Of a stretch of 64,000 nucleotides of DNA, positions 21,047-49,660 are shown piece by piece. A model generated the notes under the pieces. The model made no database searches and was not told where the DNA came from. It was given only the letters and a program-made list of their open reading frames with translations. The stretch lies in IMG/VR virus record IMGVR_UViG_3300014204_007611. The stretch is one strand, 5' to 3'. Numbering within the stretch: the stretch's first letter is position 1; each line of letters begins with the position of its first letter. Both the position numbers and the translations under genes were made by a program. Source of the stretch: a virus.

Positions 21047-21111
21047 AATCATTCTCCTAGACCAGTATGTTATATACATACTGGCTATACCGAGAGAATA
21101 ATCAAAAGAAC

Positions 21112-21366
21112 CTAAGGCGTGGCCGACTCACCAAGAAAAGCTTGATAATGGTCTTTAGCCATATCAAAATAATGTAGCGGGATTGCCGTACCCTGTTCTA
21201 ACTGCTCGGCCATCTGTCTTAGGTAAGTGATGGTCGAGTTTAGGGCCTGCTGCTTCGTCATCTGCCCAAACCCTGGGACAGTGACAGGTGGTGATTCATT
21301 GACGTCCTCAGAAATCATCCTAGAAAGTTCGTCAATGTCGTCACTTGATAAACTCATCATTCCCAT
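21112..21366 (-). CDS. Hypothetical protein
   Basis: 84-aa ORF in the same-strand gene array. Confidence 0.35.
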   Translation of the reverse strand: MGMMSLSSDDIDELSRMISEDVNESPPVTVPGFGQMTKQQALNSTITYLRQMAEQLEQGTAIPLHYFDMAKDHYQAFLGESATP

Positions 21367-21477
21367 AATGCACCTATAACGTTGTTAATATATCTTTTAC
21401 AGCAATGCGATTGAGAGGAGTACGACGTGCTTATTATTCGATATCAGACGACCAATATGGTGTGATTGTCTTCACAT

Positions 21478-22623: not shown

Positions 22624-22640
22624 AATATACCTAAAAAAGT

Positions 22641-22671
22641 GCCCCAGTGGACATATCCGGTCCACCGGGGC
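22641..22671 (-). terminator. Rho-independent terminator
   Basis: GCCCCAGTGGAC-atatccg-GTCCACCGGGGC hairpin (11 bp with one A.C mismatch), followed on the minus strand by a TTTTTT tract at 22634-22639 immediately before the ATG of the ATPase gene. Confidence 0.55.
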
Positions 22672-23060: not shown

Positions 23061-23798
23061 TCAGGGTGTATCGAAAACGTAGCCAAGGAAATTCTTGGCC
23101 ACTGAAACGTCTTTCACTTCAACGCTGTTCGCTTCGCCCCTCGCAGTTCGAACTGCCTCTTGGAGCTTGACGATGCGAGCAAGCATTGCACGACGGTCGG
23201 CGTCGGGAATACCGCCAGAGTACTTGATCGTCGACCAATAACCAACCGGGACGTCTTCCATCCAGGTCTCGACTTGGGCGGGGTGCTTGTCGGTGGCGTC
23301 GTACTTCACGTTGTTGCGCGGCACCTTCTTGGTCCGAATCGATTCGGACGCTTCTGTCGCATAGTCGCCGCTGTCGCCGTTCTTCGACCACTTCTCAGCC
23401 GGATCGAGAACCGGGAACTTCGCGACGAAGGTGTGCAAGTCGGTGAGTTGCTTTTCGAGGAACAACAAGTGGGTCGCCGGGACTTGGTTGATGATAGTCT
23501 TGCCATCAACAATCACGTCGGCGAAGGCCGTTGTGTTCGCGACGTCCTGGGTGGCGACGATATCGATAACGTCGGTCAGAATGGTTCTGGCCCGTTCGAT
23601 CGATTCCGAAACGCGGATCTGAACCAGCTTCGCCTCCGAAGGTAGCTTCTCACCTTCGTCGTTGATTGGCCGGTAATTCCGTGCGATGCCGTTGAGCAGG
23701 TCGGTCTTCTGATGCAATTTGTGCAGTTCGGTTAAACCCGATACTGCTCGCGCCTTCTTGCCGTCAGCAAGCGCGATAATCTGGTGTAACTTGGGCAT
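23061..23798 (-). CDS. Hypothetical protein
   Basis: 245-aa ORF directly upstream of the tRNA-like locus in transcription order. Confidence 0.45.
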   Translation of the reverse strand: MPKLHQIIALADGKKARAVSGLTELHKLHQKTDLLNGIARNYRPINDEGEKLPSEAKLVQIRVSESIERARTILTDVIDIVATQDVANTTAFADVIVDGKTIINQVPATHLLFLEKQLTDLHTFVAKFPVLDPAEKWSKNGDSGDYATEASESIRTKKVPRNNVKYDATDKHPAQVETWMEDVPVGYWSTIKYSGGIPDADRRAMLARIVKLQEAVRTARGEANSVEVKDVSVAKNFLGYVFDTP

Positions 23799-24289: not shown

Positions 24290-24766
24290 TTACTCGAATT
24301 GTTGGCACCAGAATGGTGCCCCACTCGGAGAGGCATATCCAGTAAACCCAGCCTTAGTATAGCCAGGATTGAGAATATTCGCTCGATGTCCAGAGCTGCT
24401 CATCCAAGCTGCTACAACGTCATCGACGTCGGCTTGGCCCATTGCAATATTCTCACAGCGATTTGCGCAATGAATCATCGAGTGTTGGTTTGCCATCCAA
24501 CCACAATGTTGTCTCGCTTTATGGAGGACCACGATGTCGAGAACCAAAGCTCGCAGGCCATACTTCTCACGGATAGCGTTGATGGCGTTGAGCAATTTGT
24601 GCTCATGCTCATATACTGGCGACTTATCAACAGGTGCGTTCAGTGAAGCAGTAGTACTACCGCTGCCTGAACCACCGCGATGGAAAAGACGACCACCACG
24701 AGCGAACGCTGTATTGGCAGACAATGCCACGATTACACAGATACACAGGACCCATTTCATAGTCAA
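24290..24766 (-). CDS. Secreted CAP/SCP/PR-1 (YkwD-like) domain protein with a signal peptide
   Basis: N-terminal MKWVLCICVIVALSANTAFA signal peptide. AWMSSSGHRANILNPGYTKAGFTGY and HCGWMANQH are CAP motifs, and GENIAMGQ matches the YkwD consensus. Confidence 0.6.
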   Translation of the reverse strand: MTMKWVLCICVIVALSANTAFARGGRLFHRGGSGSGSTTASLNAPVDKSPVYEHEHKLLNAINAIREKYGLRALVLDIVVLHKARQHCGWMANQHSMIHCANRCENIAMGQADVDDVVAAWMSSSGHRANILNPGYTKAGFTGYASPSGAPFWCQQFE

Positions 24767-26465: not shown

Positions 26466-27455
26466 ATGAAAATCGCAAAAGTTATCGACCAATATGGCTG
26501 GGCGTACTATTTTCTAGACAAAGAGCAGCAACGGTATTCAAAACACAACATTTCAATATTTAGACATAATGAAGTAGTTTTAGACGGTCTTGATGCAGTT
26601 TATATTCACGGACCTGATATCTCTCCAGAAGCTCTTGAACTCTGTCATAGAGCTAAAAGCAAGGGTGTGAAAGTTATCGGCGGTCATGCCGGTCCTGTTG
26701 TTAACTTACAACCATATCCATACCTTGATCTTGCAGTAGGGATTTCACCACAGACATTTAAGTTCTGCAAAGAACACTATAAGTGTCCTACTATATTCCT
26801 GCCTGAAGGAATAGATACTGAATTCTTTATACCGATGAAACGAGACCAGCCTATATCAACTTGGTCTAGGGGCAGATGGCGACCATCAAACGAGAAATTA
26901 CCAATTCCGTCACTAGTAAAACGCAGTGGCAGATATGTTAACAACTTAATAGTTGGTTGGGCTGGAAGACGTGATAACGTCAAGAGAATGCATTTATTAG
27001 AACGCCTTGATTTCAAAATAGAAATACAATCACAGCACGGAAGACAATTTTTTGTTGAGAGATCTCTTGACCACATGCTGCGGTTTTACAATGCTATCGA
27101 TGTACTAGTTATGACTAGCTTAAGTGAATGTATGCCGCGAGTTGTATTAGAGGCTTGTTCATGTGGTATCCCTGTCGTTTGCACTGATGTCGGGTCTATT
27201 CGTATGATTCTCGACCCTGATTGGATCGTACCTGTTAACCCAGAGAAGACAGTAGTAGAAGAGATGAATAAGCGCCTGCATTCACTAGAGAACAAAGACT
27301 TGAGAAGTAAAGTCGGTTTCGATAATAGACAGAGAATTGAAAAGACGTTGAGTTGGAAAGTTTTATGTCCTTATTGGGATGCCGCTATGATAGCGGCGGT
27401 CGAGGGGAACGTAAGTAGTATCAACACCATCAACCGTCATTTTGGAATGATATGA
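26466..27455 (+). CDS. Glycosyltransferase family 4/1 (GT-B)
   Basis: MTSLSECMPRVVLEACSCGIPVVCTDVGSIRMIL matches the EX7E-type GT4 C-terminal motif. Confidence 0.6.
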   Translation: MKIAKVIDQYGWAYYFLDKEQQRYSKHNISIFRHNEVVLDGLDAVYIHGPDISPEALELCHRAKSKGVKVIGGHAGPVVNLQPYPYLDLAVGISPQTFKFCKEHYKCPTIFLPEGIDTEFFIPMKRDQPISTWSRGRWRPSNEKLPIPSLVKRSGRYVNNLIVGWAGRRDNVKRMHLLERLDFKIEIQSQHGRQFFVERSLDHMLRFYNAIDVLVMTSLSECMPRVVLEACSCGIPVVCTDVGSIRMILDPDWIVPVNPEKTVVEEMNKRLHSLENKDLRSKVGFDNRQRIEKTLSWKVLCPYWDAAMIAAVEGNVSSINTINRHFGMI

Positions 27456-29095
27456 AAGACTTAACAAAACAGGTCACTGCATTCGTTATTAGTTCCGGGA
27501 CGAACCCTAACTTTCAGCTATGCTTGGATGCATTAAAGACACAGACTGTTAAGGTGACTGTCGATATTGTTAAAGATTATAGTCCAATGTCTGTCGCTTT
27601 TCAACAGATGCTAGTACGGTGCAAGACACCATACTATGTCGAAGTTGATGAAGACATGATACTAAACCCAGATTCCATCGAGAAGATGTACGATGCAATT
27701 AAATCAGAGCAAGATCCTAAGTGCTCGATGATTGCTTATAGATTGCTTGATGTTCATATCGACTTCGTGATTTACGGTATCAAGATATACAAGTTCGATA
27801 TATTCAAAAAATATCCGTACGATCTCAGCCATATGTCGTGTGAGGTAGAACAGCTTGAAAGAATGAAAGCTGATGGTTATACTTACAAACTCAACGAGGA
27901 TGTTGTAGGGAAACATTCACCGTTATGGAATAATGAACTCATATTTGAGAGATATTTGAACTTGATGGAGAAGTTCAAGGAGTTTGGTTATGTTTGGCTT
28001 GAGAGTCTACCAAAGAAATTATTCGAGATTTTCAAGAAGGAACCGACAGAAGTCAACTTGTTCGCATTACTCGGCGCTTACACTAGTGTTGTTAGCGACA
28101 CTAGACTGCAGCTTGGAGAAAAGAATTTCACCGCAAAACGCCCGGAATACCACAGAATGCAGAGTTTTTTGGAACAGCCGACATCGGCGACTCTCTACGT
28201 TACGAACAAATGCAATCTTAAATGTAACTTCTGTTGGCGGCAGCATAAAGAGTTAGAAGATTTCCCAGATATGACGGCTGGCGTTATTGATGACCTGTTA
28301 TTTAGGTTCCCATCTATCCAGTCATTATGTGTTTGCGGGTTTGGAGAGCCGTTTTTATGTGAAAATTTCATATCGATAATGCAGTATATCAAGGCACCAA
28401 CATCAACTTTCCATTCATATGGTAAGAATTTATTTGTTGGGTTAATTACAAATGGGACGCTTGCAGCTGAACGGCTACCCTGGCTACGAGATGCTGGATG
28501 TTTACCTGATTATTTATCTGTGAGTCTTAATGCGTCAAACGCCGCCGAATACAAACGGACCACTGGCTATGATCTTTTTGAGCAGGCGCTGGCTGGTGTT
28601 CGTACTAGTGTCAGTTTAGGTGTTCAGACTTATCTGTCGCGTGTATGCGATAAAAACAATTTGTCAGATATAGCAGAATTTCTCGCATTAGCTAAGTCAT
28701 TGGGTGTTCAAGGCGTTCATCTACATAATATACTTCCACACTTCGATGATAATGAGAACAAACAGTTCTGGGATCTCGTCTTAACAAAAAATGATCAAGT
28801 CTTAATCGATGCAATTAAGACTTTACCAGACGCCGATATTGTCCTGCGATATCCAGTACTTATAGCCAAAGATGAAGTTAGAAGAAATTGTTTGTTCCCG
28901 TGGAAGACGATCGGTATTAACGGGAACAGATCAATTACGATTTGCAACAGTGTGTCACCACCAAGGAAAGAAAACGGCACAATTACCGATAGCATCATCT
29001 GGCAAAGCGAATATTGTCAGAAGTTTCGTGAAATGAAAGCAGGCGAACAGTGCGAAGCCTGTAAAAAATGCTTCCGCAATTGGCAGTACGACTAA
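27452..29095 (+). CDS. Fusion protein: N-terminal glycosyltransferase-like domain plus C-terminal radical SAM domain with a SPASM-like Cys cluster
   Basis: YVTNKCNLKCNFCW is the CX3CX2C radical-SAM motif. The C-terminal CNSVSPP...CEACKKCF cluster is SPASM-like. Confidence 0.55.
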   Translation: MKDLTKQVTAFVISSGTNPNFQLCLDALKTQTVKVTVDIVKDYSPMSVAFQQMLVRCKTPYYVEVDEDMILNPDSIEKMYDAIKSEQDPKCSMIAYRLLDVHIDFVIYGIKIYKFDIFKKYPYDLSHMSCEVEQLERMKADGYTYKLNEDVVGKHSPLWNNELIFERYLNLMEKFKEFGYVWLESLPKKLFEIFKKEPTEVNLFALLGAYTSVVSDTRLQLGEKNFTAKRPEYHRMQSFLEQPTSATLYVTNKCNLKCNFCWRQHKELEDFPDMTAGVIDDLLFRFPSIQSLCVCGFGEPFLCENFISIMQYIKAPTSTFHSYGKNLFVGLITNGTLAAERLPWLRDAGCLPDYLSVSLNASNAAEYKRTTGYDLFEQALAGVRTSVSLGVQTYLSRVCDKNNLSDIAEFLALAKSLGVQGVHLHNILPHFDDNENKQFWDLVLTKNDQVLIDAIKTLPDADIVLRYPVLIAKDEVRRNCLFPWKTIGINGNRSITICNSVSPPRKENGTITDSIIWQSEYCQKFREMKAGEQCEACKKCFRNWQYD

Positions 29096-29098
29096 ATT

Positions 29099-29764
29099 AT
29101 GACAGAGAAGTTCCAACCATTGGTTATAGTTGACGGCAAACAAAAATGGGCTCACGTCTCAATTCCGAAATGTGCATGTAGCTCTATTAGACGTGCTCTG
29201 GAGAAGCATTTTAAGTTAAAACCAGTTGAAAAATATGAGATGGTCCATAGCCGGAAATGGCCGCATGTAGAATCGATGAATTGGATTTCTGAGCTTGATG
29301 ACGACTGGTATACATGGGCTATTGTCCGCAATCCTTTTGATCGGCTTGTATCAGTTTGGCAAGAAAAATGCTGTACATCGGCGGCGAGACCAAATCTTGG
29401 ACCACAGCTGCAACGTTTAGTTGGCCAGCCTTTTGATGTATTTTGCAGGACGGTGTGTGCTATTATACAAGAACCACCAGAAGCAGATATACATCTTGGT
29501 TGGTATGTCCGAGGGATTGATACACATATAGCACCGATGTCGCATTTTCTACTTCATGATGGAAAATGCGTAGCCAAAGTCATACGAGAGATGCATGAGG
29601 TAGACTCTTTTTGGTCAGGTCTACAAAAACGGTTTGGTTTTCCGGACTTAGGACATCTCAATATTAGCGTCCATAAACCGCCAGATTGTTATTATACACC
29701 AGAGCTACGACGCCTCGTTGAAGATGCTTACAGTGATGATTTACGCCTCTGGTGGAGTAAATGA
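29099..29764 (+). CDS. Sulfotransferase (Sulfotransfer_2/carbohydrate sulfotransferase-like)
   Basis: IPKCACSSIRRAL resembles the 5'-PSB loop PKxGxT, and IVRNPFDRLVS resembles the 3'-PB motif RDPxxR..S. Confidence 0.5.
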   Translation: MTEKFQPLVIVDGKQKWAHVSIPKCACSSIRRALEKHFKLKPVEKYEMVHSRKWPHVESMNWISELDDDWYTWAIVRNPFDRLVSVWQEKCCTSAARPNLGPQLQRLVGQPFDVFCRTVCAIIQEPPEADIHLGWYVRGIDTHIAPMSHFLLHDGKCVAKVIREMHEVDSFWSGLQKRFGFPDLGHLNISVHKPPDCYYTPELRRLVEDAYSDDLRLWWSK

Positions 29765-30792
29765 TGCAGTATAAAGTTGTCAATCTTGGAGACGATCCGT
29801 GGAGCAGAGACCTTAAATATGAGTTAGTTAATTTACCACATTACAAAACAGCCAAACAGTGGATGCGAAATATCGACATCCCAATGGTTGAAACAGAATA
29901 TTTTCAATGGCTAGAATCACAATTAGTGGAAAACGGCAGCGTATGGAATGGACTATTAAGTAATAGAAAAGACATCATCAGACAATATCACAATTTTAAA
30001 CATCTATTCGAAATAGCTCCAAATTTCGTAGAAGAACAGCCAACAACACAAAAAATCGATGGTGTGTCTTACTATTATGGTCCAATTTGCGTGAAGATCA
30101 GAGGCAGTGGAGAAATCAGGATTTGGGATGGTATGCACAGGACATCGATCTTGCTTGCCACCAACCATCCAATTCGATTTACTATTTGTGAGCGTGAAGA
30201 TGGATGGCTTAACTTATTGAATAGCTTGAAAACATTATATCCAACGATGATGTATCAAGCTATCCCACATCCAGACTTCGCAGATTGGGCGTGCTGCGAT
30301 TATAGTATAAAAGAGCAGCAAATATCTAATGTCGTAATGGATAACGGCATCAAATCAATACTTGACCTTGGAAGCTGCCACGGTCATGTGCTTTATAGTT
30401 TAAGGGGTATCCTGCAGTCAGCCACAGGTGTCGAATACGATCCAGTTAGATATCGCGTCTTGAAGTTGTTATTCGACAAGCTAGGGTTTGAATCATATAA
30501 CGCTAACATTTTTGATGTCGTAAACAAAACAACTAAGCACTTCGACTGTGTTTTCGCGTTGGCGGTGTTCCATCATTTTACTAGAGAAAACACTATCGAA
30601 AAATTCAATACCCTATTAGATCGAATCAGCAGCATATCAGATATGCTGCTCTACGAATTACCGGAACCGGGCGAAGAGCAGCATGCGTGGATGTACCACG
30701 ACATAGATATGCATGCGATCATTCAGTCAAGATATAGAAACAGCACAGTCATACCGATACAAAATAGGAAGATGTTGTTGCTGCAGAATTAA
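29761..30792 (+). CDS. Class I SAM-dependent methyltransferase
   Basis: ILDLGSCHGHVLYSL is MTase motif I; VFALAVFHH is a motif II-like block. Confidence 0.5.
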   Translation: MMQYKVVNLGDDPWSRDLKYELVNLPHYKTAKQWMRNIDIPMVETEYFQWLESQLVENGSVWNGLLSNRKDIIRQYHNFKHLFEIAPNFVEEQPTTQKIDGVSYYYGPICVKIRGSGEIRIWDGMHRTSILLATNHPIRFTICEREDGWLNLLNSLKTLYPTMMYQAIPHPDFADWACCDYSIKEQQISNVVMDNGIKSILDLGSCHGHVLYSLRGILQSATGVEYDPVRYRVLKLLFDKLGFESYNANIFDVVNKTTKHFDCVFALAVFHHFTRENTIEKFNTLLDRISSISDMLLYELPEPGEEQHAWMYHDIDMHAIIQSRYRNSTVIPIQNRKMLLLQN

Positions 30793-30794
30793 CC

Positions 30795-31700
30795 ATGCCT
30801 AAACCATATAGTCTTTGCATTTTGAGTTTGAAGAACCCTAATAGTCTCAATGAGTCTAGAAGCTCAGTGCATATGGTGACATGGGCATTATGGAACGAAT
30901 TCTCCAAGATGCAGCATGTCACGCTAGAATTCCAAAGTATTTATGAGCCTTTGGTTGAAATATCGCCCGATTTTGTTTTATTCCATGCCTGCTTTGGCGA
31001 ACTTGAATTTGGTAGATTGGCGGAACTACGAAAACGCGCGAAATATAAAACAATGTCATTTATGGAGCTGCCACTATCAAAAGAGTACGTCGATTATTGC
31101 TTCATATATCTGCCGCAAACGACTTTTCAACATTGCGAGGAAATATCACTACCATGCCTGTCATCAGCACTAAATGAACATATCTCAACTAAAGTGCCCG
31201 GTAGTATCCTATTAGACCACATGTGGCCTCCATATCATAGGACACAAAAAGAGTGGAGTCAATATTTATATGAGTGGCTGTCTTCTTATCGAAAACATGC
31301 AAAATGCTCGATATCACAGTTACGTAGAGGTGGGTGCGAATCGATAGAGAAATTTCCGCCTTGGGTCACCCCGATACCAGAAAAACCATATACTGAATAT
31401 TTAGATGCCACTGCGCATTTTGAGACTTACATCTTAACACATCCAGGCAGTTACGAACACAGCGTTATTGATATGGCATATCGAGGCACACGTGTGCTTG
31501 TGCCTGTAATGCACGGACAGCCATTTATTCCGAAGTCAACAATAGAGCGATTAAATCTACAAACTTTTACTAGTAGATTAGATCTGTTGGCTTTATTAAG
31601 AGCACCAACTCAAGTTAAGCATAATCGTCAGTCATTTACTGATGCTGCTGAGATTGCATTGCGAATCGACAATTACTGTCAGAAAACCTTGGAGGCTTAA
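30795..31700 (+). CDS. Hypothetical protein within the glycan-tailoring operon
   Basis: 301-aa ORF, same strand, tightly packed between two methyltransferase genes. Confidence 0.4.
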   Translation: MPKPYSLCILSLKNPNSLNESRSSVHMVTWALWNEFSKMQHVTLEFQSIYEPLVEISPDFVLFHACFGELEFGRLAELRKRAKYKTMSFMELPLSKEYVDYCFIYLPQTTFQHCEEISLPCLSSALNEHISTKVPGSILLDHMWPPYHRTQKEWSQYLYEWLSSYRKHAKCSISQLRRGGCESIEKFPPWVTPIPEKPYTEYLDATAHFETYILTHPGSYEHSVIDMAYRGTRVLVPVMHGQPFIPKSTIERLNLQTFTSRLDLLALLRAPTQVKHNRQSFTDAAEIALRIDNYCQKTLEA

Positions 31701-31701
31701 C

Positions 31702-32328
31702 ATGGATATTGCTGCCGACATCACAAAATTTAGTGATATGACCGATATTGAAAATTTCGGATCTGAATATCTAGGATATCCAGCACAACAAACCCATTTA
31801 GCTTATCAGGTATTTGCCGATTTTCTCGAAGCAATCAAACCAAGTAGGATACTTGAAATCGGTACAGGTGGTGGCGGCTTCACCAACTTCCTATTCACCG
31901 TGACAACTGAACTTGGTTTAGGCTGTCAGCTTATATCATATGACATCTGCGAACGACCGTCATATTCCGATCTCAGGGTCAAAGGAGTCGACATACAAAT
32001 ACAAAATGTTTTTGATGTCGACGATTGCAAACAACATATCAAAGACTTCATCAAACAAGACGGCACTACTCTTGTTCTGTGCGATGGTGGAAACAAAAAG
32101 AATGAATTCGTAATATTGTCCGCTGTAATCAAGCCAGGGGATTATATTATGGCACACGATTACTGCGAAAATTCAGATAAGTTCTATTGTGATATGTTCA
32201 AAAAGAGATGGAATTGGTATGAAATCTGCGACAAGGATATAGAGCAAGCATGCAACGATAATCATCTAATCCCTCACAATAAAGACGCTTTTGATAACGT
32301 AGCATGGGTCTGTAGGACCCGTGTTTGA
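31702..32328 (+). CDS. CmcI/rhamnosyl-O-methyltransferase-like SAM methyltransferase
   Basis: ILEIGTGGGGFTNFL...LCDGGNKKNEF. ATG at 31702 directly after the previous stop. Confidence 0.5.
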   Translation: MDIAADITKFSDMTDIENFGSEYLGYPAQQTHLAYQVFADFLEAIKPSRILEIGTGGGGFTNFLFTVTTELGLGCQLISYDICERPSYSDLRVKGVDIQIQNVFDVDDCKQHIKDFIKQDGTTLVLCDGGNKKNEFVILSAVIKPGDYIMAHDYCENSDKFYCDMFKKRWNWYEICDKDIEQACNDNHLIPHNKDAFDNVAWVCRTRV

Positions 32329-32406: not shown

Positions 32407-34590
32407 ATGATCGACCTAGAATCAGTCAATATCGAGAACTTCATCAGTTGGGGTCCGTATAATTCGACGCTCAAATTGGCTGGTATGGAGCAGTGCTTCA
32501 TAGTTGGCAATGTTCTAGATAGGGACGACGCATACGGTAAATCGAACGGCTCCGGTAAAAGTTCCATGATGCAGGCTATATTATGGTGCCTGTCTGGAAA
32601 AACGGTCTATAATCAAAATCCGGGCGATAAGATTCTTAATTGGTTTTCTTCCGGTAATGCCAAGGTCGGCCTAAGATTCAAAAATGGCGATGAATTAACT
32701 CGTATTAGAACTCGCCAAGGTGATACTGAGCTCCTATTTAGACGCGGCACACAAGAAATAATCAACTGCACCCTCTCAACCACTGGGAACCAACAAAGAT
32801 TACTAGATAAAGAATTAAAATTCGATTACAGCCTATTCTGTGGATCTGTTTTCTTTTCTCAATATCGACAGCCGTGGCTTGCTATGCAAGACCAGGCAAG
32901 ACGACAAGCTTTTGAACGCATCATGGGCATAGACCGTTTATCAATCTATGCCGAAGTTGCGAAAGACAAATACGACAGAGCATTAGCCGAGCAAGAGAAG
33001 AGAAAAACAAAAATAGCCGGTTTCCAATCAACCATAACCACACTTATGCAGCAGTTTGAGACTGCCCAAAGCTCGTCATCAACATTCGAATCAAGTCGCA
33101 ATGAACGGCGTGCCGCCAAAATAAAGCTGGCAAAAGAATATGAAGAAAAAGCAGCTAAATGTGTCTTGATTGATACTATTGCATTAGCAAAAAAATGGAC
33201 CATAGTCGATAAGATTAACGCTAAGATATCGGAAATTCAGTCACAGATCACAGCCGCAGATACTGGCATAACTAGTGCAGAGACTACGAGGCTAAATACT
33301 ATCATGCGTCTGCGTCAAGAAGCGCAGACAGCAAAAGATGTGGCGTCACAATCGTCGGACACTGAGGAAGAATCAATCCAAGATACGTGTGACGCCGCCA
33401 CCAAGGTCAAACAGAGTGAAATCGATGCTCTGAATAAACAGATATTGGCTATTCAGAGTAAAAAAGCCATACAAGATGGAGTGATAAGCTCGCAAAATGC
33501 AATCATCAAGAGGTGGGAAGATAAAGCGGGCAAGATATGCGTTGAATGCGAACGAGAGCTTCCGCAAGATTATGCAAACAGCAAAATCGATGGTCCTAAG
33601 TCTGTAAAAGCTACCGCAGAACATGAGATTCTAAAACTGCAAAAAGACATAGGTGCCCTCGAAGCCAAAATAGCTAAAATCAACAAACAAATCGAAAAAC
33701 TCGAATCACAGGCAGAAGCCGATATAGCGGCGGCTTCTGCAAAATCGGTGGCCGCAATAGCTGCCATCGACAAACAACTAGAAACATCAATAAGTGATGC
33801 TAATACACTCGCAGCTTCTGCGAAAGCTGATCTACAAGTCAAAAAGAAACAACTTGAACATCTGACCGTAGCAACTAAGAAGAAACTTGAAATAACAAAA
33901 CCAGAGATAACTGTCAATGAAGCGAATGCTACAAATTCGCAACGAGATACACTATTAGGGTCGATGCGTCAAGCTCTGAAGGATGCCGAGGATATCACCG
34001 CCGAAAAGAACACCCATACCAAATCGATTATTGAACTTGGGCAAGAAATCAAGAAGAATGAGGATCAAGTCAAGGCTGAGCAGAAAGACCTGGCCACATA
34101 TGATATCATTCTTACACATCTGTTGTATATACAAAAGGCTTATAGCGATCGTCGAAAGATTAAGAGCTATTTGATCAGCCGTCATCAACCATACTTCAAT
34201 TCAAGATTACATCATTACCTTGATCTATTTAGCCTAGATATCAAAGTGTCGTTGACTGATTCGTTGGGAATCGAGAGCAACCTTTGGGGCTATGACTTTC
34301 AGAGTGGCGGGGAACGTGGCAGAACCGATCTAGCTTTTATGTTCGCCGTATTCGACCTGCATCAAGGTATCCATGGTCCGCAGTGTAATATTTTGGTGCT
34401 AGACGAACCGGAAAAAGCTCTTGATGAATCTGGCCGCCAGATGCTCATAAGCGTAATCAAAGATGATTTGGCAACTAGATTCGAATCCATTTTTATCATC
34501 TCGCATAGCGATTGCTTCCACGACGTCTTTCCACACCAGATTACTGTTGAAAGAACCGATAGGTTCTCGCACATCACCGACATCAGATAA
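32407..34590 (+). CDS. SbcC/Rad50-like SMC-family ATPase (T4 gp46 analog)
   Basis: Walker A GKSNGSGKSS at the N-terminus, a long coiled-coil middle, a QSGGERG signature and a LVLDEPEKALD Walker B/D-loop at the C-terminus. Confidence 0.7.
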   Translation: MIDLESVNIENFISWGPYNSTLKLAGMEQCFIVGNVLDRDDAYGKSNGSGKSSMMQAILWCLSGKTVYNQNPGDKILNWFSSGNAKVGLRFKNGDELTRIRTRQGDTELLFRRGTQEIINCTLSTTGNQQRLLDKELKFDYSLFCGSVFFSQYRQPWLAMQDQARRQAFERIMGIDRLSIYAEVAKDKYDRALAEQEKRKTKIAGFQSTITTLMQQFETAQSSSSTFESSRNERRAAKIKLAKEYEEKAAKCVLIDTIALAKKWTIVDKINAKISEIQSQITAADTGITSAETTRLNTIMRLRQEAQTAKDVASQSSDTEEESIQDTCDAATKVKQSEIDALNKQILAIQSKKAIQDGVISSQNAIIKRWEDKAGKICVECERELPQDYANSKIDGPKSVKATAEHEILKLQKDIGALEAKIAKINKQIEKLESQAEADIAAASAKSVAAIAAIDKQLETSISDANTLAASAKADLQVKKKQLEHLTVATKKKLEITKPEITVNEANATNSQRDTLLGSMRQALKDAEDITAEKNTHTKSIIELGQEIKKNEDQVKAEQKDLATYDIILTHLLYIQKAYSDRRKIKSYLISRHQPYFNSRLHHYLDLFSLDIKVSLTDSLGIESNLWGYDFQSGGERGRTDLAFMFAVFDLHQGIHGPQCNILVLDEPEKALDESGRQMLISVIKDDLATRFESIFIISHSDCFHDVFPHQITVERTDRFSHITDIR

Positions 34591-34606
34591 TAGGAGCGTT
34601 TGAATA

Positions 34607-35791
34607 ATGGATAGCTCAGATGGCCAATCGGCGTTGGTCGCCGAGCCGCCGAGTTCTAAAACACAAAATTTTCGCGAGCGTTATTTTCCAGATATAACCG
34701 ACGAGGATTGGGACGACTGGCGATGGCAGTTAAATAACAGGTATACGACTAAAGAACAGCTAGAATCCGTCATCGACCTCAGCAGCAAAGAGAGCATGGC
34801 AATGGTGAAACTCCATTGCCTCGGAAGATTAGCAATCAACATAACGCCATATTACCTCAGTCTAATCTCACCGACCGATCCGAACCATCCACTTCGACGA
34901 ACTGTTATCCCGACTTTAGACGAATTCTATACGTCAGTCGAAGAGGCAACCGACCCTCTAGCTGAAGACAAAGACACCCCAGTTCCGAAGCTTGTGCACC
35001 GATATAAGGATAGAGCACTCCTTTTAGTAGCTGGACAATGTGCTAGCTACTGCCGATATTGTACGAGATCAAGACTAGTTTGCGTCCAAAACGCAAAACC
35101 GGCTACGCAGCCGCAACTAAATGCCGCAATTGCGTATATCAGACAAAATACCAATATCAGAGATGTCATTGTATCTGGCGGCGACCCGCTATTGTTTGCA
35201 GATGGAGACTCAATTAGAGGCGGCAAACTCGATTCGATTTTATATGAATTGCGGCATATCAAACATGTAGAAATCATCAGAATCGGCACCAAAGTACCGG
35301 TAGTGTTGCCACAACGAATCACACTGAAGTTATGTAAGACACTGAAGAAATATCACCCATTATTTATGAGCGTCCATTTTACACACCCAGATGAACTGAC
35401 ACCGGAATGTGTAAAAGCTTGTACGATGTTGGCTGATGCAGGAATTCCGTTGGGATCACAGACGGTATTACTATCTGGCATTAATGATAATATCGAAACG
35501 ATGAAATCATTAATGCATAAACTGTTGATGGCGCGTGTCAGACCATATTACCTCTACCAGTGCGACCCGGTTGTAGGAACCGCCCACTTCAGAACTCCTA
35601 TCTCAAAAGGTATAGAAATTATCGAAGGTCTGCGAGGACATACCTCGGGATACGCAATTCCAACATTTGTAGTCGACGGACCGGGCGGTCGCGGAAAGAT
35701 ACCATTGCAACCAAATTATGTGATAGGCCAAGATGAGAATGGCACTACTCTCCGCAACTTCTGCGGAGAGATCTGTCATTATCCTGGATAA
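34607..35791 (+). CDS. KamA-family radical SAM aminomutase (lysine 2,3-aminomutase/EpmB-like)
   Basis: CASYCRYCTRS is the KamA CxxxCxxC motif, in the KamA-family context ITPYYLSLISP. The gene has a TAGGAG ribosome-binding site. Confidence 0.7.
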   Translation: MDSSDGQSALVAEPPSSKTQNFRERYFPDITDEDWDDWRWQLNNRYTTKEQLESVIDLSSKESMAMVKLHCLGRLAINITPYYLSLISPTDPNHPLRRTVIPTLDEFYTSVEEATDPLAEDKDTPVPKLVHRYKDRALLLVAGQCASYCRYCTRSRLVCVQNAKPATQPQLNAAIAYIRQNTNIRDVIVSGGDPLLFADGDSIRGGKLDSILYELRHIKHVEIIRIGTKVPVVLPQRITLKLCKTLKKYHPLFMSVHFTHPDELTPECVKACTMLADAGIPLGSQTVLLSGINDNIETMKSLMHKLLMARVRPYYLYQCDPVVGTAHFRTPISKGIEIIEGLRGHTSGYAIPTFVVDGPGGRGKIPLQPNYVIGQDENGTTLRNFCGEICHYPG

Positions 35792-35801
35792 AATATAAAT
35801 T

Positions 35802-36332
35802 ATGGATCGCTTTGCAGACAAACTACGCACTGCCCTGAATAACGATGTTGCCGAAAGGCTTCTAGTTCGTTATTTCGCTAGCAAGGGATTTGATAAGACA
35901 AAGCTCGATCAACAACTCTACCCACCACTCATCCAAGATATGCAGTTTGCAATATCTGAGATGTCTGATAAAATAGAAGTTGTCCCGCATGTCAGGAATA
36001 TCGATCCTCTCGGCGACACAGCAAGATTAGGGTGGAATTTGTTCGTCCTCGGCAATCAGCGATGCTATCTTGGCGAGACATTTCATATGGGGTTGAAGCG
36101 ACTTACTCTTCAACTTCAGCACGGACAGATCTTAGCTGAAGATCAGTCTGCTACACGGCAGACAACGCCGCGACGAATAATCAAGTTTATAGCACGAGTT
36201 TTCGAGCAGCATGAGGAGGGTTATATCAACCTTACTCCTCGAATCATCCCGTTGCCCTATCAGCATCCGAGAGCTTCTGGTCTTGGAATGGCTCAACAGT
36301 TCTGGAGTAAGCCTGGCGGGCCGAAGTGGTAA
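35802..36332 (+). CDS. Hypothetical protein, co-directional with the KamA-like gene
   Basis: 176-aa ORF starting 11 nt after the KamA stop. Confidence 0.4.
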   Translation: MDRFADKLRTALNNDVAERLLVRYFASKGFDKTKLDQQLYPPLIQDMQFAISEMSDKIEVVPHVRNIDPLGDTARLGWNLFVLGNQRCYLGETFHMGLKRLTLQLQHGQILAEDQSATRQTTPRRIIKFIARVFEQHEEGYINLTPRIIPLPYQHPRASGLGMAQQFWSKPGGPKW

Positions 36333-37679
36333 TCAATCGGTCCCGACAGCCACACCATGTGCGATCAGCTGTAACCCTATAGTCTGCTGATATTGTTTGA
36401 TGTCCTTGGATGTGCATCCAAGGAATTTCGCCATCCGATTGTTGTGCGGAATTCCTTGATTCACTTTTGGCGTATCTGGGTACTGCTTGACGAAATCTTG
36501 GTAGATTGGTCCAGTACCAGATAGCAATTGAAAGACTGCTTGGCAATGTCCATCTGGTAAGCAGTCTTGCACGTGAGCAATGATCTCACGTACTTCAACG
36601 GCGGCTGTGCTGTCTTCGAGCATGTGTTGATCCTCTAGTTGTGATATAACATCTATCGAATCACCATCATCATCTCGGTGCCCGACAACATTATTCACAA
36701 TTTGAACTTCTGAATTGACAGATGCGGAAAATTCGGTATACGGTGCCTGTCCCTGCATGTCACGAATGACGATATAATTGGGACTGATGACAACCTCTCC
36801 ACCGAGAGATACAAGGCGTTCCCTGATTTCCCAGAACCGTGGGTAGAAGTCAGTTGGTGATAATAGCATCGGATCGCATGCGATAGCATAGCAAGCGTCG
36901 TCAATTGGAAAGGATGGATTACGTTCTGGGACTCCATGATAGACGTGAAAGGCTTTGAGATCAGCCAGTAATAGATTAATAGCGTCAGCAGCAGTTTTGT
37001 CGGTCGGGCCAAATAGACCTACCGTTCGCTTCTGATGTTTGGTTATCGGATTTTCAAGCAGAATCTGCCTGAAATAATTCCAAATGAAAGACCCGAAGAA
37101 CTTTTTCAGTTGCTCCGGGTCATTGAGGATTCGCTCTGGATCTTCGACCTTTGGTGCTCCGTGGGTCGCGACAATTGGGCTCTTTATTATCGGCGGGCGT
37201 TTATTCTCACGTTCCATCCGATCCACTAAGAACAGATATTCGTCTTGCGACAGCGAGGCACCTTCTTGGAAAACGCTGTCGCCTGGGTCAGATATCAGGC
37301 AAGAGCCGCAGGAAGGACAGAAATCAAAGCGGCGGTTGAATGGAGTAATTCGATTGCTCTGGCTAACAAATGAAGTATTATGACACAAAGAGCATTCGAA
37401 ACTATAATCGGTATGATAGAGGAGGTGGACAAGGCCGCGCCAGACTGCTATTCTGAATTCTTCCTGTGCCGCATTGATGTTGTCGTGGTAATCGGCAGCT
37501 ATTGTTGATCCAAGCTGATAAATAAATTCTTGCCGGTGTCCAGCGAGCACTTCATGCTCTCCGACAGTAACCATTAACTCCTCAATTCTGGCTTGCTGCT
37601 CCTCGGTCAGGCCCCGCATCGTCACGTTGGCGAGCGAGCCGCGTAAGAAGACTTCCGATAATTGTCTTACTTTGGACAT
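36333..37679 (-). CDS. Hypothetical protein with Cys clusters
   Basis: 448-aa ORF, divergent from the gp55-like gene; FECSLCHN...CPSCGSC cysteine motifs. Confidence 0.45.
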   Translation of the reverse strand: MSKVRQLSEVFLRGSLANVTMRGLTEEQQARIEELMVTVGEHEVLAGHRQEFIYQLGSTIAADYHDNINAAQEEFRIAVWRGLVHLLYHTDYSFECSLCHNTSFVSQSNRITPFNRRFDFCPSCGSCLISDPGDSVFQEGASLSQDEYLFLVDRMERENKRPPIIKSPIVATHGAPKVEDPERILNDPEQLKKFFGSFIWNYFRQILLENPITKHQKRTVGLFGPTDKTAADAINLLLADLKAFHVYHGVPERNPSFPIDDACYAIACDPMLLSPTDFYPRFWEIRERLVSLGGEVVISPNYIVIRDMQGQAPYTEFSASVNSEVQIVNNVVGHRDDDGDSIDVISQLEDQHMLEDSTAAVEVREIIAHVQDCLPDGHCQAVFQLLSGTGPIYQDFVKQYPDTPKVNQGIPHNNRMAKFLGCTSKDIKQYQQTIGLQLIAHGVAVGTD

Positions 37680-38406: not shown

Positions 38407-39354
38407 ATGATTTTAAATTTAAGAGTCCGACCGATTAGCAATAACGTCAAGCGTGAAATTGTGCTTCCCAAGGCCGCTAGGCCAGTCATGCGACCGCAGC
38501 AATCTGTGACGAAGGCATTGCGGGCTGTTATGAGGCCGCAGCCAATTGCAGTAGCACAGCCAATTCAACAGCCAAATCGACGGCCGCCTGTAATGCCTAA
38601 GAGGGGTGTGGCAGCAAAACAAGCGCCAGGGAAAGTCAATAAGCCGACAACTAAGGTCATCACACGTGACCCGCCTGAGGCGAGCACCAGAAAATTACGC
38701 GAGCTACACAATTCATGCATAGGACGAGTGCTGGCGATTATCGCCAATGGTCCTAGTGTGCTAGAAGTCGACACAACAAGATTGCTCCTAAATCCACGTG
38801 TTGATATTATGTCGATAAACAAGCCAGACACACGCATCTGGCCAACCAAGTATTGGCTATTCTGTGATATTTCGCAATTAAAGCGACATAATGATTTATG
38901 GTCGAGATATAATGGACTCATATTCAACTCGACGATGATTCAAGAGGTACGACCAGGCACAATATTTATCAAGAATATTCCTGGCTTTGGATTTAGCACC
39001 GATTTGGCGAGCGGTTTTCACATTGGGAGATCGAGTGTTTATGCAGCTATGCAGGTAGCGTTATGGCTTGGATATGATAAGATATATATTTTCGGTATTG
39101 ATATGGGGGCGGTGACAGTCGATGGTAAGGAGATGTTGCATTTCTATGGAGTCAACCAAGATTGCACACCTGACAGCCGAAAAAAGAGATTCACTGAAGA
39201 AGCGAAATATTATGATGATGCGAGTAGATCACTACCGCCAGAAACAAGAAAGAAATTCTACTTCTGTAGCTCATATAACAAATTCGATTTCGTAAACAGA
39301 TTCAACAAATTAGACCATCACGAAGCCATAGATATAGTTTGCAATGATGTGTAG
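38407..39354 (+). CDS. DUF115/Maf-like putative glycosyltransferase with a Pro-rich repeated N-terminus
   Basis: LAIIANGPSVLEV...IMSINKPD...IFGIDMG. The N-terminus has RPVMRPQ / RAVMRPQ repeats. Confidence 0.5.
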   Translation: MILNLRVRPISNNVKREIVLPKAARPVMRPQQSVTKALRAVMRPQPIAVAQPIQQPNRRPPVMPKRGVAAKQAPGKVNKPTTKVITRDPPEASTRKLRELHNSCIGRVLAIIANGPSVLEVDTTRLLLNPRVDIMSINKPDTRIWPTKYWLFCDISQLKRHNDLWSRYNGLIFNSTMIQEVRPGTIFIKNIPGFGFSTDLASGFHIGRSSVYAAMQVALWLGYDKIYIFGIDMGAVTVDGKEMLHFYGVNQDCTPDSRKKRFTEEAKYYDDASRSLPPETRKKFYFCSSYNKFDFVNRFNKLDHHEAIDIVCNDV

Positions 39355-42096: not shown

Positions 42097-43380
42097 ATGC
42101 CTTTCGACAAAATCAACGCAGAGGAATATATGTCAGCCAATTATCCAAATCGCAGAACTACCAAAACATATCCATTCACACCAGGCAAAAGTGGCGAGAT
42201 GGTGGTCGTGACGACCGACGGTGGCGCTGGATCATCAGGCAAGGGATCTCTTAATTCTTGGTTAGCTGACAAATACGATTTCCATCTAGCGACCAACAAT
42301 TGGATGACGAACGCTGGCCATTATACGGAACTTGACGACGGCACACGGATACTGGTCCAGCACATTCCGTCAGCATTCATCAACAAGAACACGCGACTCT
42401 ACATCAACGCCGGTGCTGCGATCGATCTGAAAACGTTGTTCAGCGAAGTAGCAAACCTCGAATCGCTCGGCTTCCAGATTCGCGAAAGATTGATCATCCA
42501 TCCGCTAGCCAACGTAATAACTGAAGAGAACAAGCAATATGAGCGTGAAACCATCAAGACTGGTAGCACGTTCAAGGGATGTGGTGCGGCTATCGCAGCA
42601 AAGGCTATGCGACTACCACAGCAAAAACTGGCGAGAGACTACGAGGAACTCCGCGAGTTCTGCACAATCGCCGATTTAACGATGGAGTTGAATCACGGCA
42701 TAGCCAAATATGGCATGCGAGTTCTTGTTGAAGGTTCGCAAGGCGTCGATCTTGACCTCAACTTCGCCGAATACCCATATTGCACCTCGCGGCAAACGCA
42801 CCCGACACAACTTGTAGCAGATGCTGGTCTTCCTGGTAGAGCAATCACAAATGTCGTCATCAATTTACGCACCAATCCGATACGCATTAGCAACGAGTCG
42901 GCTGCAACCGGTGAGCAATGCTACACCGGCAATTACTGGGAAGCAAGAGAAATCGGGTGGGAAGCTGTAGCGAAGCAGGCCGGATATGATAACTTCGATG
43001 AGTTCGTCGAAGAATACAGATATGCAATGATGACGTCCGTCACCAAGAAGGTCAGACGCATCTTCGAATTCCCGACCGAAAGGGCGAAATATGTGAACGC
43101 TCTGGCTGGCGGTCTGCTCAGAGACGGCCGCGTTCTCTATAGCCTCAACTTCATCAATTTCGTTGACAGAACCGTCAAAGGCAAGACGACATACGAAGAA
43201 GTCTTCACGCCAAAGGTTGTTAATTGGTTGCGGATGCATTTGCAGCCGGTGCTCGAAAATAATGGCACGTATGTTGCCAGTGTGAACGAAAGCTGCGATG
43301 ACTTGTCTGATATGTCGCAATTCTTCGGATTGCATTGGGTCAGAACTGGACCGAAGCACAGCCAAATAGTCGAGTTATGA
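42097..43380 (+). CDS. Adenylosuccinate synthetase (PurA) family enzyme; a divergent phage homolog that could be PurZ-like
   Basis: The protein is colinear with E. coli PurA: a GAGSSGKGS P-loop where PurA has GDEGKGK (the catalytic Asp is replaced by Ser), TNAGHY for GHNAGH, TIKTGSTFKGCGAAIA for IGTTGRGIGPAYE, VEGSQGVDLDLNFAEYPYCTS for [21 protein letters not shown], and KKVRRIFEF for GRRRRTGWLD. Confidence 0.65.
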   Translation: MPFDKINAEEYMSANYPNRRTTKTYPFTPGKSGEMVVVTTDGGAGSSGKGSLNSWLADKYDFHLATNNWMTNAGHYTELDDGTRILVQHIPSAFINKNTRLYINAGAAIDLKTLFSEVANLESLGFQIRERLIIHPLANVITEENKQYERETIKTGSTFKGCGAAIAAKAMRLPQQKLARDYEELREFCTIADLTMELNHGIAKYGMRVLVEGSQGVDLDLNFAEYPYCTSRQTHPTQLVADAGLPGRAITNVVINLRTNPIRISNESAATGEQCYTGNYWEAREIGWEAVAKQAGYDNFDEFVEEYRYAMMTSVTKKVRRIFEFPTERAKYVNALAGGLLRDGRVLYSLNFINFVDRTVKGKTTYEEVFTPKVVNWLRMHLQPVLENNGTYVASVNESCDDLSDMSQFFGLHWVRTGPKHSQIVEL

Positions 43381-44186
43381 ACGTAAAGCTGGCAGTTTAT
43401 ACTGATGAAGTATTCGACGACCCTGATAAGGCTTGTGAGCTATTAGCCACAAAGAAGATCACTGGTGTTTGCTTACGCCGTGGCTGGTGTCGAGAAATCT
43501 ACAATATGCCAGATAATGCCATCAGTATTCTAGGTGGCATACTGTCGAAGCACGGCTTATTGCCAGTTCTTTTGCATACTGAAATCGGTTGTGTCAATCC
43601 GAGTCAATTGGCTGCAGAAGAACCAAAACTTGTTAGAGCGATGCAGATATGCAAATACTTGAAATGTAAAGCCGTTCGAATTGGCATCGGAACGATGTCG
43701 GCGAAGGATGATAGCGAATCGATCCAGAAGTGGTTAACTACTATTTCTGGGCTCAGTATATCGTACGATGTTCAGTTGTTATTCGAGCCAGAGACAAATT
43801 CTTATTATAATCAAGCAGCGGCAATAGCTATATTACTGAACAAGTTTAGACGTTTAAATCTGCTATTCGACCCGGCGATGTTAGTGATGCGTACCAAAAA
43901 CAACCCTTTTGTAAAGTTTTGGTCGCTGTTGAAATCGCGAATCACGTTCGTCGACATCCACGATTTCAAAACCGGCGATGCAGCTAAACCAGCTGGGTTT
44001 GGCGATGCGCAGTTAGATGTTTTGGTAGCTGACGCTTTAGCATCAAACTTCTCTGGTTGGTTTTGTTTAGAGCCGGGCCTTGGAAGGCGATATGGTGATG
44101 CGACAACCAAAGATCAAACATTCTTACGTGCTTTCGACGCATTCGAGGCATTACTTCAAAGAATACAATTACCAAAAATACTTTGA
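43377..44186 (+). CDS. Xylose-isomerase-like TIM-barrel (sugar phosphate isomerase/epimerase family) protein
   Basis: 270 aa. ATGA overlap with the PurA-like stop. The fold assignment is by pattern only. Confidence 0.4.
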   Translation: MNVKLAVYTDEVFDDPDKACELLATKKITGVCLRRGWCREIYNMPDNAISILGGILSKHGLLPVLLHTEIGCVNPSQLAAEEPKLVRAMQICKYLKCKAVRIGIGTMSAKDDSESIQKWLTTISGLSISYDVQLLFEPETNSYYNQAAAIAILLNKFRRLNLLFDPAMLVMRTKNNPFVKFWSLLKSRITFVDIHDFKTGDAAKPAGFGDAQLDVLVADALASNFSGWFCLEPGLGRRYGDATTKDQTFLRAFDAFEALLQRIQLPKIL

Positions 44187-48877: not shown

Positions 48878-49071
48878 TAATGCCCGATTCTCCAGCGCGG
48901 CCACCAGACGTAAATGATGAGCAATGGCAAAAATTTATGAGCGAGTACCATATCACAGTATTGGTGCCGCTTGAAGTACACCTTCGCGAACGCGCTAGAT
49001 TGGTGAAAATTATTCTTGTAATGTTAATTCCGTCAGCCGCCATCATTATAGCAGCGTGGTGCGGATTATAA
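48868..49071 (+). CDS. Hypothetical small membrane protein
   Basis: 67 aa with a hydrophobic C-terminus. Confidence 0.3.
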   Translation: MGMIMPDSPARPPDVNDEQWQKFMSEYHITVLVPLEVHLRERARLVKIILVMLIPSAAIIIAAWCGL

Positions 49072-49659
49072 CGCTCTTCGCCAATTCTCCCATACAAACT
49101 CATAATCATAAGTCAAATAGTGAGTTTGACTCAAGCGATCTCTAATCGCTTGCCGCCTTGCTTCTGCATGTGGCGTAAACTGATGAAATTGTACTTGTAA
49201 ATCTCTGACTATATTGATACTACCAGTATTGATCATATGATCTAATAAGTCATATTCAGCGCCTTCGATATTCATTTTCACTAGCCGTATCTGTGGCAGT
49301 GCTTGTTCACGAATTACATCATCAATCGAAATAATTCGTATCTTCTCCTGCTGCCCGCTTTGTGACAGAATACTCGAAGCATCACCATTCACCGTGATAT
49401 TGCAAACTGTCGTTACTGGGCCGATGCCAGCACGATAAACATATGCACCAGTACCAGCTAAAGCCTTAGTTGTCATGGCGTAATATTCTGCGACTGGTTC
49501 GAACGCTATGATTCTGCAATGGTAACGATCATATATCTGGCGGCTCCAAACACCATGATATGCGCCGCAGTCGAAAACAACATCACTAATATTGATGCGA
49601 TAATCTAATCTCAAAGTCTCATCGCCATGATCAGCAAACCAACGGTCAAAATCAGGCAT
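49066..49659 (-). CDS. FkbM-family SAM methyltransferase
   Basis: VFDCGAYHGVWS...IIAFEP is the Methyltransf_21 pattern. Confidence 0.55.
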   Translation of the reverse strand: MPDFDRWFADHGDETLRLDYRINISDVVFDCGAYHGVWSRQIYDRYHCRIIAFEPVAEYYAMTTKALAGTGAYVYRAGIGPVTTVCNITVNGDASSILSQSGQQEKIRIISIDDVIREQALPQIRLVKMNIEGAEYDLLDHMINTGSINIVRDLQVQFHQFTPHAEARRQAIRDRLSQTHYLTYDYEFVWENWRRAL

Positions 49660-49660
49660 T

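Follow-up and report, generated by a model that had tools for sequence, protein, structure and literature searches.

The closest described counterparts of the gene analyzed in this study are lysine 2,3-aminomutase (LAM) of Clostridium subterminale (KamA, structure 2A5H, EC 5.4.3.2) and KamA/YodO of Bacillus subtilis. LAM is expected to convert L-lysine into L-beta-lysine, and lysine fermentation is one route that uses this product (PMC6522883). Another is the synthesis of the solute N-acetyl-beta-lysine by the AblAB pathway, which is established in methanogens (PMC1224877). In E. coli and Salmonella the KamA-family enzyme EpmB serves the beta-lysylation of elongation factor P (EF-P) (bioRxiv 10.1101/2023.09.18.558224; PMC6522883). 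Here we describe a KamA-family gene on the plus strand (34607..35791) of a 64,000-nucleotide stretch of the IMG/VR virus record IMGVR_UViG_3300014204_007611, hereafter called the window. It encodes a 394-aa enzyme that depends on radical S-adenosylmethionine (SAM) and pyridoxal 5'-phosphate (PLP). The kind of enzyme is known, and the setting is a large phage, in which its role has not been studied. Phage KamA genes have already been annotated as lysine 2,3-aminomutase by GenBank and JGI annotators, and in our literature search we did not find aminomutase or beta-lysine metabolism as a reported theme among phage auxiliary metabolic genes (AMGs).

Membership of the 394-aa protein in the KamA family of radical-SAM enzymes is unambiguous, the similarity being far beyond chance. 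It scored 339.8 bits against the NCBIfam KamA subfamily model TIGR00238 (cut-off 199.2), 82.8 bits against Pfam LAM_C (2.9e-23, cut-off 26.7) and 36.4 bits against Pfam Radical_SAM (7.7e-09, cut-off 29.5). In a phmmer comparison residues 22-392 matched 2A5H with 440 bits (6e-131), at an identity of about 54%. The signature CASYCRYCTRS, from which the family had been recognized in the original prediction, is present at residues 145-155 (35039..35071, plus strand) and comprises the CxxxCxxC motif for the [4Fe-4S] cluster and SAM together with the Arg equivalent to R134 of LAM.

For a closer look at the active site, the window protein was aligned with 13 other phage copies and with cellular homologues, using the residue numbering of 2A5H. 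C145, C149 and C152 correspond to the cluster cysteines C125, C129 and C132 of LAM, and the equivalents of R134, D293, D330 and the PLP-binding Lys337 are intact. All 13 other phage copies likewise retain the Cys triad, the PLP-binding Lys and the lysine-binding residues. We take R134, D293 and D330 to be the contacts to the carboxylate and the epsilon-ammonium group of lysine in 2A5H; in glutamate 2,3-aminomutase both aspartates are reportedly replaced by Lys/Asn. Among the NCBIfam equivalog models the best score was obtained with AblA (TIGR03820, 466.8 bits, E 5.3e-140, cut-off 525.4), followed by glutamate 2,3-aminomutase (TIGR04368, 413.7, cut-off 650), arginine 2,3-aminomutase (TIGR04468, 363, cut-off 600) and EpmB (TIGR03821, 247.6, cut-off 369.3), so that all four cut-offs were missed and the lysine model exceeded the glutamate model by 53 bits and the arginine model by 104 bits. 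Judged by these sequence features, the window enzyme is LAM-like and not EpmB-, glutamate mutase- or arginine mutase-like. Since the lysine models score highest and both the Cys triad and the Asp pair are present, the expectation of a lysine-type KamA with an intact active site was borne out; we found neither closer homology to a non-lysine member of the family nor an inactive Cys triad. From the enzyme family, a radical-SAM and PLP-dependent 2,3-migration of the amino group that turns free L-lysine into beta-lysine can be predicted with fair confidence. In contrast to 2A5H, the phage enzyme is devoid of the C-terminal domain of about 50 residues and of all four zinc ligands. It ends two residues past LAM position 365, near LAM residue 367, and the LAM_C match covered only positions 1-55 of 127. 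Both the loss of the zinc site and the short C-terminus are common to the nearest cellular homologues and are therefore not a sign of decay in the phage. Two further differences from the C. subterminale enzyme and YodO are that the gene is phage-encoded and that lysine-fermentation genes are not adjacent to it.

KamA is under purifying selection. In comparison with the copies of two syntenic relatives (L003 and L004, see below), pN, the proportion of nonsynonymous differences, was 0.09-0.11, while its synonymous counterpart pS was saturated at about 0.75. The gene starts 16 nt 3' of the stop codon of an SbcC gene and ends 10 nt 5' of a gene for a 176-aa protein. An AGGAG ribosome-binding site (34592..34596, plus strand) is located 10 nt 5' of the ATG, just past the SbcC stop codon (34588-34590). 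GC content (0.456) and GC content at third codon positions (GC3, 0.435) are close to the GC content of the window (0.446). The low pN against a saturated pS, the ribosome-binding site and the window-like GC and GC3 values indicate, as far as sequence can tell, that the gene is functional and well settled in the phage genome. KamA is probably co-transcribed with SbcC.

The window derives from an uncultivated huge phage. This had been assumed before and is now supported by syntenic viral relatives in IMG/VR, a prohead protease and a phage SbcC. The IMG/VR viral contigs L003 (388 kb) and L004 (93 kb) show full synteny with 26-44 kb of the window at amino-acid identities of 66-97% per gene, and KamA is 80% identical to the syntenic copy in L003. 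The prohead protease is T4 gp21-like (phrog_207, 1.2e-43). Among 50,697 deposited phage genomes there was no DNA-level match for 32-40 kb of the window, and in the same records a tblastn search with the 448-aa sigma-like core gene described below was without a match. No tRNA genes were found in the window. Three radical-SAM genes, KamA included, lie within the 64 kb; the other two encode a 547-aa protein whose N-terminal half is without assignment (27452-29095, plus strand) and a 274-aa protein of the SPASM/twitch type (61133-61957, plus strand). From the three radical-SAM genes and from the near cellular relatives of KamA, which are all anaerobes, we infer an anaerobic host.

Within this phage clade KamA is accessory cargo in a variable slot, carried by one subclade of the huge-phage lineage. 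For the backbone comparison, distant members of the 448-aa protein family were fetched together with their surroundings. The upstream anchor of the slot is the gene of a 727-aa SbcC/Rad50-like ATPase (32407..34590, plus strand; phrog_77, 6e-76; SMC_N), which is kept in L003, L004, L016-L019, L026 and L027. It is followed by the slot itself, the 176-aa family gene, the convergent 448-aa family gene, a gene for about 215-265 aa and an MptE-like gene, with a PurZ-like and an AP-endonuclease-like gene farther along. Across the compared genomes the slot alone varies along this backbone, and its length between the SbcC and the 176-aa family anchors ranges from 221 to 1686 nt. The window, L003 and L004 have KamA at this place, and L017 and L027 a bona fide sigma70 gene; L016 carries a Dam methylase and a 274-aa gene, and L018/L019 a sulfotransferase-like gene together with one for 265 aa. 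In L026, whose 448-aa and 176-aa family proteins are 65% and 76% identical to those of the window, the slot contains only a 69-aa open reading frame (ORF). No KamA remnant was detected in the KamA-less genomes. Similar arrangements are described for phage AMGs in variable ('hyperplastic') slots of large myoviruses, where likewise a single host-derived enzyme of a committed step sits between core genes and related genomes carry other cargo at the same place. We also considered a recurrent adjacency of SbcC and KamA across phage lineages and rejected it as unsupported, since the other KamA loci have unrelated neighbours and the genes of about 700 aa located 5' of KamA in the Vibrio and Pseudomonas phages gave no SMC/AAA_23 Pfam match.

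Regarding the PurZ-like gene of the backbone, PurZ is the succino-amino-deoxyadenylate synthase of phages with 2-aminoadenine ('Z') DNA. The adenylosuccinate-synthetase-like gene of the window (42097-43380, plus strand) has PurZ as its best match with 176.9 bits, below the cut-off of 300. It is followed by a gene with an AP_endonuc_2 TIM barrel (43335-44186, plus strand), and the pair is conserved in L016-L018, L025 and L027. Such a pair may indicate Z-base or other purine-modified DNA.

Next to the slot lie the genes for the 176-aa protein (35802..36332, plus strand) and the 448-aa protein (36333..37679, minus strand). The original prediction had placed these two ORFs and KamA at exactly the positions at which we found them, and had proposed the two neighbours as the partner ligase or transferase of KamA. 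It had also called the 448-aa gene divergent. In fact its stop codon abuts that of the 176-aa gene (36332/36333), and it converges with the latter and with KamA; only towards the following gene, at 37724, is its orientation divergent. Both proteins are indeed uncharacterized, without matches in Pfam, NCBIfam or PHROG. Their families comprise 93 (176 aa) and 46 (448 aa) homologue clusters, all on large metagenomic contigs. A partner role of the two genes is refuted by comparative genomics and structure. The 176-aa family occurs without KamA in L016-L019, L026 and L027, and the two genes stay adjacent to each other in the KamA-less relatives. Moreover, neither protein resembles EpmA or other class II aminoacyl-tRNA synthetases, ATP-grasp enzymes or GNAT acetyltransferases by sequence, profile or fold, which answers the suggestion that an EpmA- or ATP-grasp-like fold might be found in them. 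With hhalign, the probability of a match to the ATP-grasp and GNAT partners of cellular KamA, described below, was at most 1.3% for the 176-aa family and at most 2.1% over both families.

The 176-aa protein is thus a core protein of the clade and the downstream anchor of the slot. It is the most conserved gene product of the region (97% identical to L003, compared with 80% for KamA), with Y24, F25, W78, N79, R87 and H95 among its invariant residues, and is clade-specific and clearly important. Its predicted model is confident, with a mean predicted local distance difference test score (pLDDT) of 84.8, and gave no fold match in PDB or BFVD and no sequence match in PDB. The string 'RASGLG' near its C-terminus was rejected as a GNAT motif A, as it lies in a disordered tail (pLDDT < 50), is not conserved and is accompanied by neither a GNAT fold nor a GNAT profile match. 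We also found no homology between this protein and the small genes 3' of KamA in the Vibrio and Pseudomonas phages. For the 448-aa core protein the predicted structure suggests, with moderate confidence, a sigma-factor-like fold with an inserted zinc ribbon, which is L33-like and formed by the invariant cysteines C96, C99, C121 and C124. The assignment is only moderate because there is no Pfam sigma match; profile comparison of the family with the sigma70 of L017 and with the 215-aa neighbour was uninformative, the templates being single sequences without power.

The cellular proteins closest to the phage KamA share 53-62% identity with it and belong to strict anaerobes, namely Syntrophaceae, KSB1, Bacteroidales, Planctomycetota (Kuenenia among them) and Desulfobacterota. 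In 63 of 74 cellular loci Ddl-like ATP-grasp ligases are encoded 3' of KamA on the same strand, mostly as a pair, with 111 copies in total. A GNAT acetyltransferase is present as well in 44 of the 74, and 11 loci have a fusion of an HDAC-type deacetylase with GNAT as the neighbour. This operon of KamA, two Ddl-like ATP-grasp ligases and GNAT probably makes an acylated beta-lysine peptide. A description of this operon or its product was not found in the literature that we searched. The genes 5' of it (loci L020-L022 and L028-L107) often are PspC/LiaF-like envelope-stress genes. The operon's KamA is the closest relative of the phage enzyme and has the same short C-terminus and the same missing zinc ligand; therefore, this group of anaerobes is the likely donor lineage. 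In contrast to it, the phage copy is an orphan. Profile hidden Markov models of the ATP-grasp and GNAT partners, which recovered 114 and 46 cellular proteins as a positive control, gave no match in the 1,632 ORFs that make up the entire window and 19 phage loci, even with the HMMER filters switched off (best E 0.058), and no KamA-positive record was among the matches of a tblastn search with the ATP-grasp partner in the phage database. Hence, the proposal of a partner ligase or transferase holds for the nearest cellular homologues, which do have ATP-grasp and GNAT partners, but not for the phage, which has none in the window and whose two neighbours are not partners.

True phage matches to KamA in the deposited-phage database all lie in large genomes, and IMG/VR adds contigs of up to 388 kb. 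The deposited genomes are metagenomic huge phages of 462-735 kb (LR756500, LR756501/LR756503), nine Pseudomonas putida jumbo phages of about 200 kb (vB_PpuM-Amme-1 and relatives) and two Vibrio coralliilyticus phages of about 200 kb (vB_VcorM_GR7B/GR11A). Thirteen more distant loci were compared with the window: nine from IMG/VR contigs, two from huge-phage genomes (462 and 735 kb), and one each to represent the P. putida and the Vibrio phages. They have no gene but KamA in common with it, and across all 15 other phage loci KamA is likewise the only one shared. In a rough neighbour-joining tree without support values, the clade of the window adjoins LAM and cellular enzymes of the Planctomycetota type; the majority of the other metagenomic phage copies form a group apart, and the Vibrio and Pseudomonas copies fall into a third. 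Because the phage copies fall into separate groups, the tree suggests several independent acquisitions and at least three KamA lineages in phages. Homing-endonuclease genes of the GIY-YIG/NUMOD type were observed beside KamA in several loci (L015, 11054-11767; L006, 15300-15929; L007, 6351-9018), the 735-kb genome LR756501 being among the huge-phage loci concerned; they may help to spread the gene between phages. As pathway partners of KamA these GIY-YIG enzymes were dismissed, as they are mobile elements instead. In phage GR7B two QueC-like (7-cyano-7-deazaguanine synthase) genes lie 4-6 kb 5' of KamA (locus L002, 7821-9454 region).

Taken together, we consider it reasonably probable that the phage encodes a catalytically competent stand-alone LAM, a captured AMG that would convert host lysine into beta-lysine for use by host enzymes. 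The [4Fe-4S] cluster bound to the CxxxCxxC motif would cleave SAM reductively to a 5'-deoxyadenosyl radical, which would take a hydrogen from PLP-bound L-lysine and thereby allow the amino group to move from C2 to C3, giving beta-lysine. The gene may have been captured from an anaerobic bacterium whose operon has two Ddl-like ATP-grasp ligases and a GNAT, leaving these partners behind; it would then have landed in the cargo slot between SbcC and the 176-aa gene and been kept by purifying selection. During infection of an anaerobic host, the phage KamA would turn host lysine into beta-lysine, and host enzymes may take it up in an ATP-grasp/GNAT pathway, in lysine fermentation or in N-acetyl-beta-lysine solute synthesis. 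KamA would thus act as a classical AMG that boosts a first committed step. Several points weigh against this explanation. Substrate and product are predictions from the enzyme family, and the enzyme stays below every NCBIfam equivalog cut-off, that of AblA included. The zinc site of 2A5H is gone (C268 replaced by N, the C375/C377/C380 region absent), and the phage enzyme could therefore deviate from 2A5H in its quaternary structure and in the stereochemistry of its product. KamA is also carried by phages that infect aerobic or facultative bacteria (P. putida, Vibrio), in which lysine fermentation is not expected. As the hosts of the carriers range from anaerobes to Pseudomonas and Vibrio, there is perhaps no single shared rationale. 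Besides, the 64 kb represent only part of a genome of about 390 kb, and a partner could be encoded elsewhere; finally, the window is rich in glycan-tailoring genes and contains a weak GNAT-like region at 61954-62856.

This richness in tailoring genes leads to a different reading, which we regard as unlikely: beta-lysine could be a building block for a phage-specific modification of a DNA base, a virion protein or a glycan, attached by enzymes of the window's toolkit or from elsewhere that are invisible to homology searches. KamA lies a few kb from a block (26466-32328) that encodes a glycosyltransferase of family GT1, a radical-SAM protein, a sulfotransferase, two methyltransferases and a 301-aa protein, and the window holds at least eight glycosyltransferase domains, at least seven methyltransferases and three MptE-like proteins, besides many ORFs without annotation. 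The slot of L018 and its surroundings also carry a sulfotransferase, PAP2 and GT1, and the PurZ-like gene hints at unusual DNA chemistry. However, no gene co-occurs with KamA across phage lineages, L004 keeps KamA although part of the upstream tailoring block is replaced, and neither an ATP-grasp, aminoacyl-tRNA synthetase-like or AblB-like acyl-transfer enzyme nor genes of a hydroxymethyl-pyrimidine pathway were detected in the window. The active site also keeps the residues that bind free L-lysine. The original prediction had raised a beta-amino-acid modification of a protein or of a hypermodified DNA base, and our analysis yielded nothing in favour of the hypermodified base. In a broader form, which is to be judged a shade less favourably still, large phages of unrelated lineages would capture a lone KamA since beta-lysine is the precursor of a phage-specific product, for instance one in which virion glycans, proteins or DNA are decorated with beta-lysyl groups. 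Every phage KamA lacks downstream enzymes, and the recurrence of the gene in phages of hosts as diverse as Pseudomonas, Vibrio and anaerobes fits an effect independent of the host better than a host-specific pathway. In a further reading, the enzyme might serve to lower the host lysine pool and thereby redirect metabolism, derepress lysine-responsive regulation or weaken the host, with beta-lysine as a by-product. We find this rather improbable, because the reaction of LAM can run in both directions, has its equilibrium near unity and makes a poor sink without a downstream step, and because the phage itself needs lysine for protein synthesis.

Less probable again is an AblA/AblB-like route to N-epsilon-acetyl-beta-lysine, by which a phage acetyltransferase would help against osmotic or ammonia stress. 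AblA is the best-scoring equivalog of the window KamA, and Vibrio phage GR7B mimics the gene pair of aminomutase and acetyltransferase known from methanogens, with a GNAT gene directly 3' of KamA (locus L002, 1918-3508; PF00583, 6e-11). This GNAT is generic, though, rather than AblB-like, and does not match the GNAT profile of the cellular operon; it is found only in the Vibrio phages, no GNAT being located beside KamA in the other 13 phage loci. The window KamA differs from AblA in its sub-cut-off score and in the lack of an AblB-like neighbour. The only acetyltransferase-like sequence of the window is the weak GNAT-like C-terminal region (residues 192-283) of the 300-aa ORF at 61954-62856 (minus strand), which lies 26 kb away from KamA, does not reach the Pfam cut-offs (22.5 < 27; 20.6 < 20.7) and is without any NCBIfam match, AblB included. 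A substrate other than free L-lysine, such as glutamate, arginine or a peptide-bound residue, could explain the sub-cut-off equivalog scores and the loss of the zinc site and C-terminal domain of 2A5H; we consider it highly improbable in view of the conserved R134, D293 and D330, of the lead of the lysine models over the glutamate and arginine models, and of the same missing zinc site and C-terminus in the nearest cellular homologues. The reading that we find hardest to credit is support of EF-P beta-lysylation, by which an EpmB-like enzyme would aid translation of polyproline-containing phage proteins. The original prediction had mentioned EF-P modification, huge phages often encode translation-related genes, and EpmB (YjeK), which acts with EpmA on EF-P, belongs to the same superfamily and performs the same formal reaction. 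Yet the window KamA is only 33% identical to Salmonella EpmB, scores lowest with the EpmB model among the KamA-family equivalogs, and has the LAM-type residues D330, Y290 and R112 in place of E, H and K in Salmonella EpmB. The product of EpmB is (R)-beta-lysine, and that of LAM-type enzymes is the opposite (S) isomer. Searches with authentic Salmonella EF-P and EpmA as queries detected neither efp nor epmA in the window, in the sequences retrieved around phage KamA or in any KamA-positive genome of the deposited-phage database; matches in that database were bacterial contigs filed as phage or ordinary lysyl-tRNA synthetase genes of other phages. Furthermore, nine of the KamA-positive phages infect P. 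putida, in which EF-P is activated through rhamnosylation by EarP and not by beta-lysylation (bioRxiv 10.1101/2023.09.18.558224). An EF-P role of phage KamA is thus unlikely on three grounds: the absence of efp and epmA, EarP in P. putida and sequence features that are not those of EpmB.

With respect to such database matches, several records of the phage collection are plainly pieces of bacterial chromosomes (efp-yjeK-groL, frdABCD, ddlB, lysU) and give rise to false phage hits for EF-P, EpmA/B and Ddl, among them AGRM01000005.1, AFYI01000007.1, CAKLQF02/CAKLQH02 ('Acinetobacter phage MD-2021a') and OR845382.1. Several other features of the window deserve mention. Its tailoring genes are found at 1900-5905, 17347-22029, 26466-32328, 38407-39354 and 49066-51084 and comprise three GT2, two GT1 (one fused to a methyltransferase), GT11, GT25 and HtrL_YibB members, at least seven methyltransferases (TylF-, CmcI- and FkbM-like), a sulfotransferase and the three MptE-like (Maf/WaaZ-like) proteins. 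An Mre11/SbcD-like phosphoesterase is encoded at 16014-17117 (plus strand), 15 kb from its expected partner SbcC (32407-34590, plus strand), and a 196-aa ORF (22075-22665, minus strand) corresponds only to the N-terminal P-loop region of SMC/AAA_23. A protein of the actin-like Volactin family (430-1797, minus strand; 5.3e-42) could be a cytoskeletal element of the phage. In addition, there is a full-length match to DUF7873 (23061-23798, minus strand; 1.4e-95), and two proteins carry the CAP/SCP domain of the cysteine-rich secretory protein family, which is unusual in phages (12055-12717, plus strand; 24290-24766, minus strand).

If the phage KamA is indeed a captured stand-alone LAM, beta-lysine would have to be useful during infection, since maintaining a lone radical-SAM enzyme that is sensitive to oxygen comes at a cost. 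The bacterial operon of KamA, two ATP-grasp ligases and GNAT is widespread and apparently uncharacterized, and its product is the best clue to the role of the phage gene. Cultured carriers exist with P. putida phage vB_PpuM-Amme-1 and its relatives and with the Vibrio phages vB_VcorM_GR7B/GR11A, so that this role is directly testable. Beta-lysine metabolism would then join the pathways that large phages tap by means of captured host genes, and the capture would have been repeated, with at least three KamA lineages in huge and jumbo phages of anaerobes, Pseudomonas and Vibrio.

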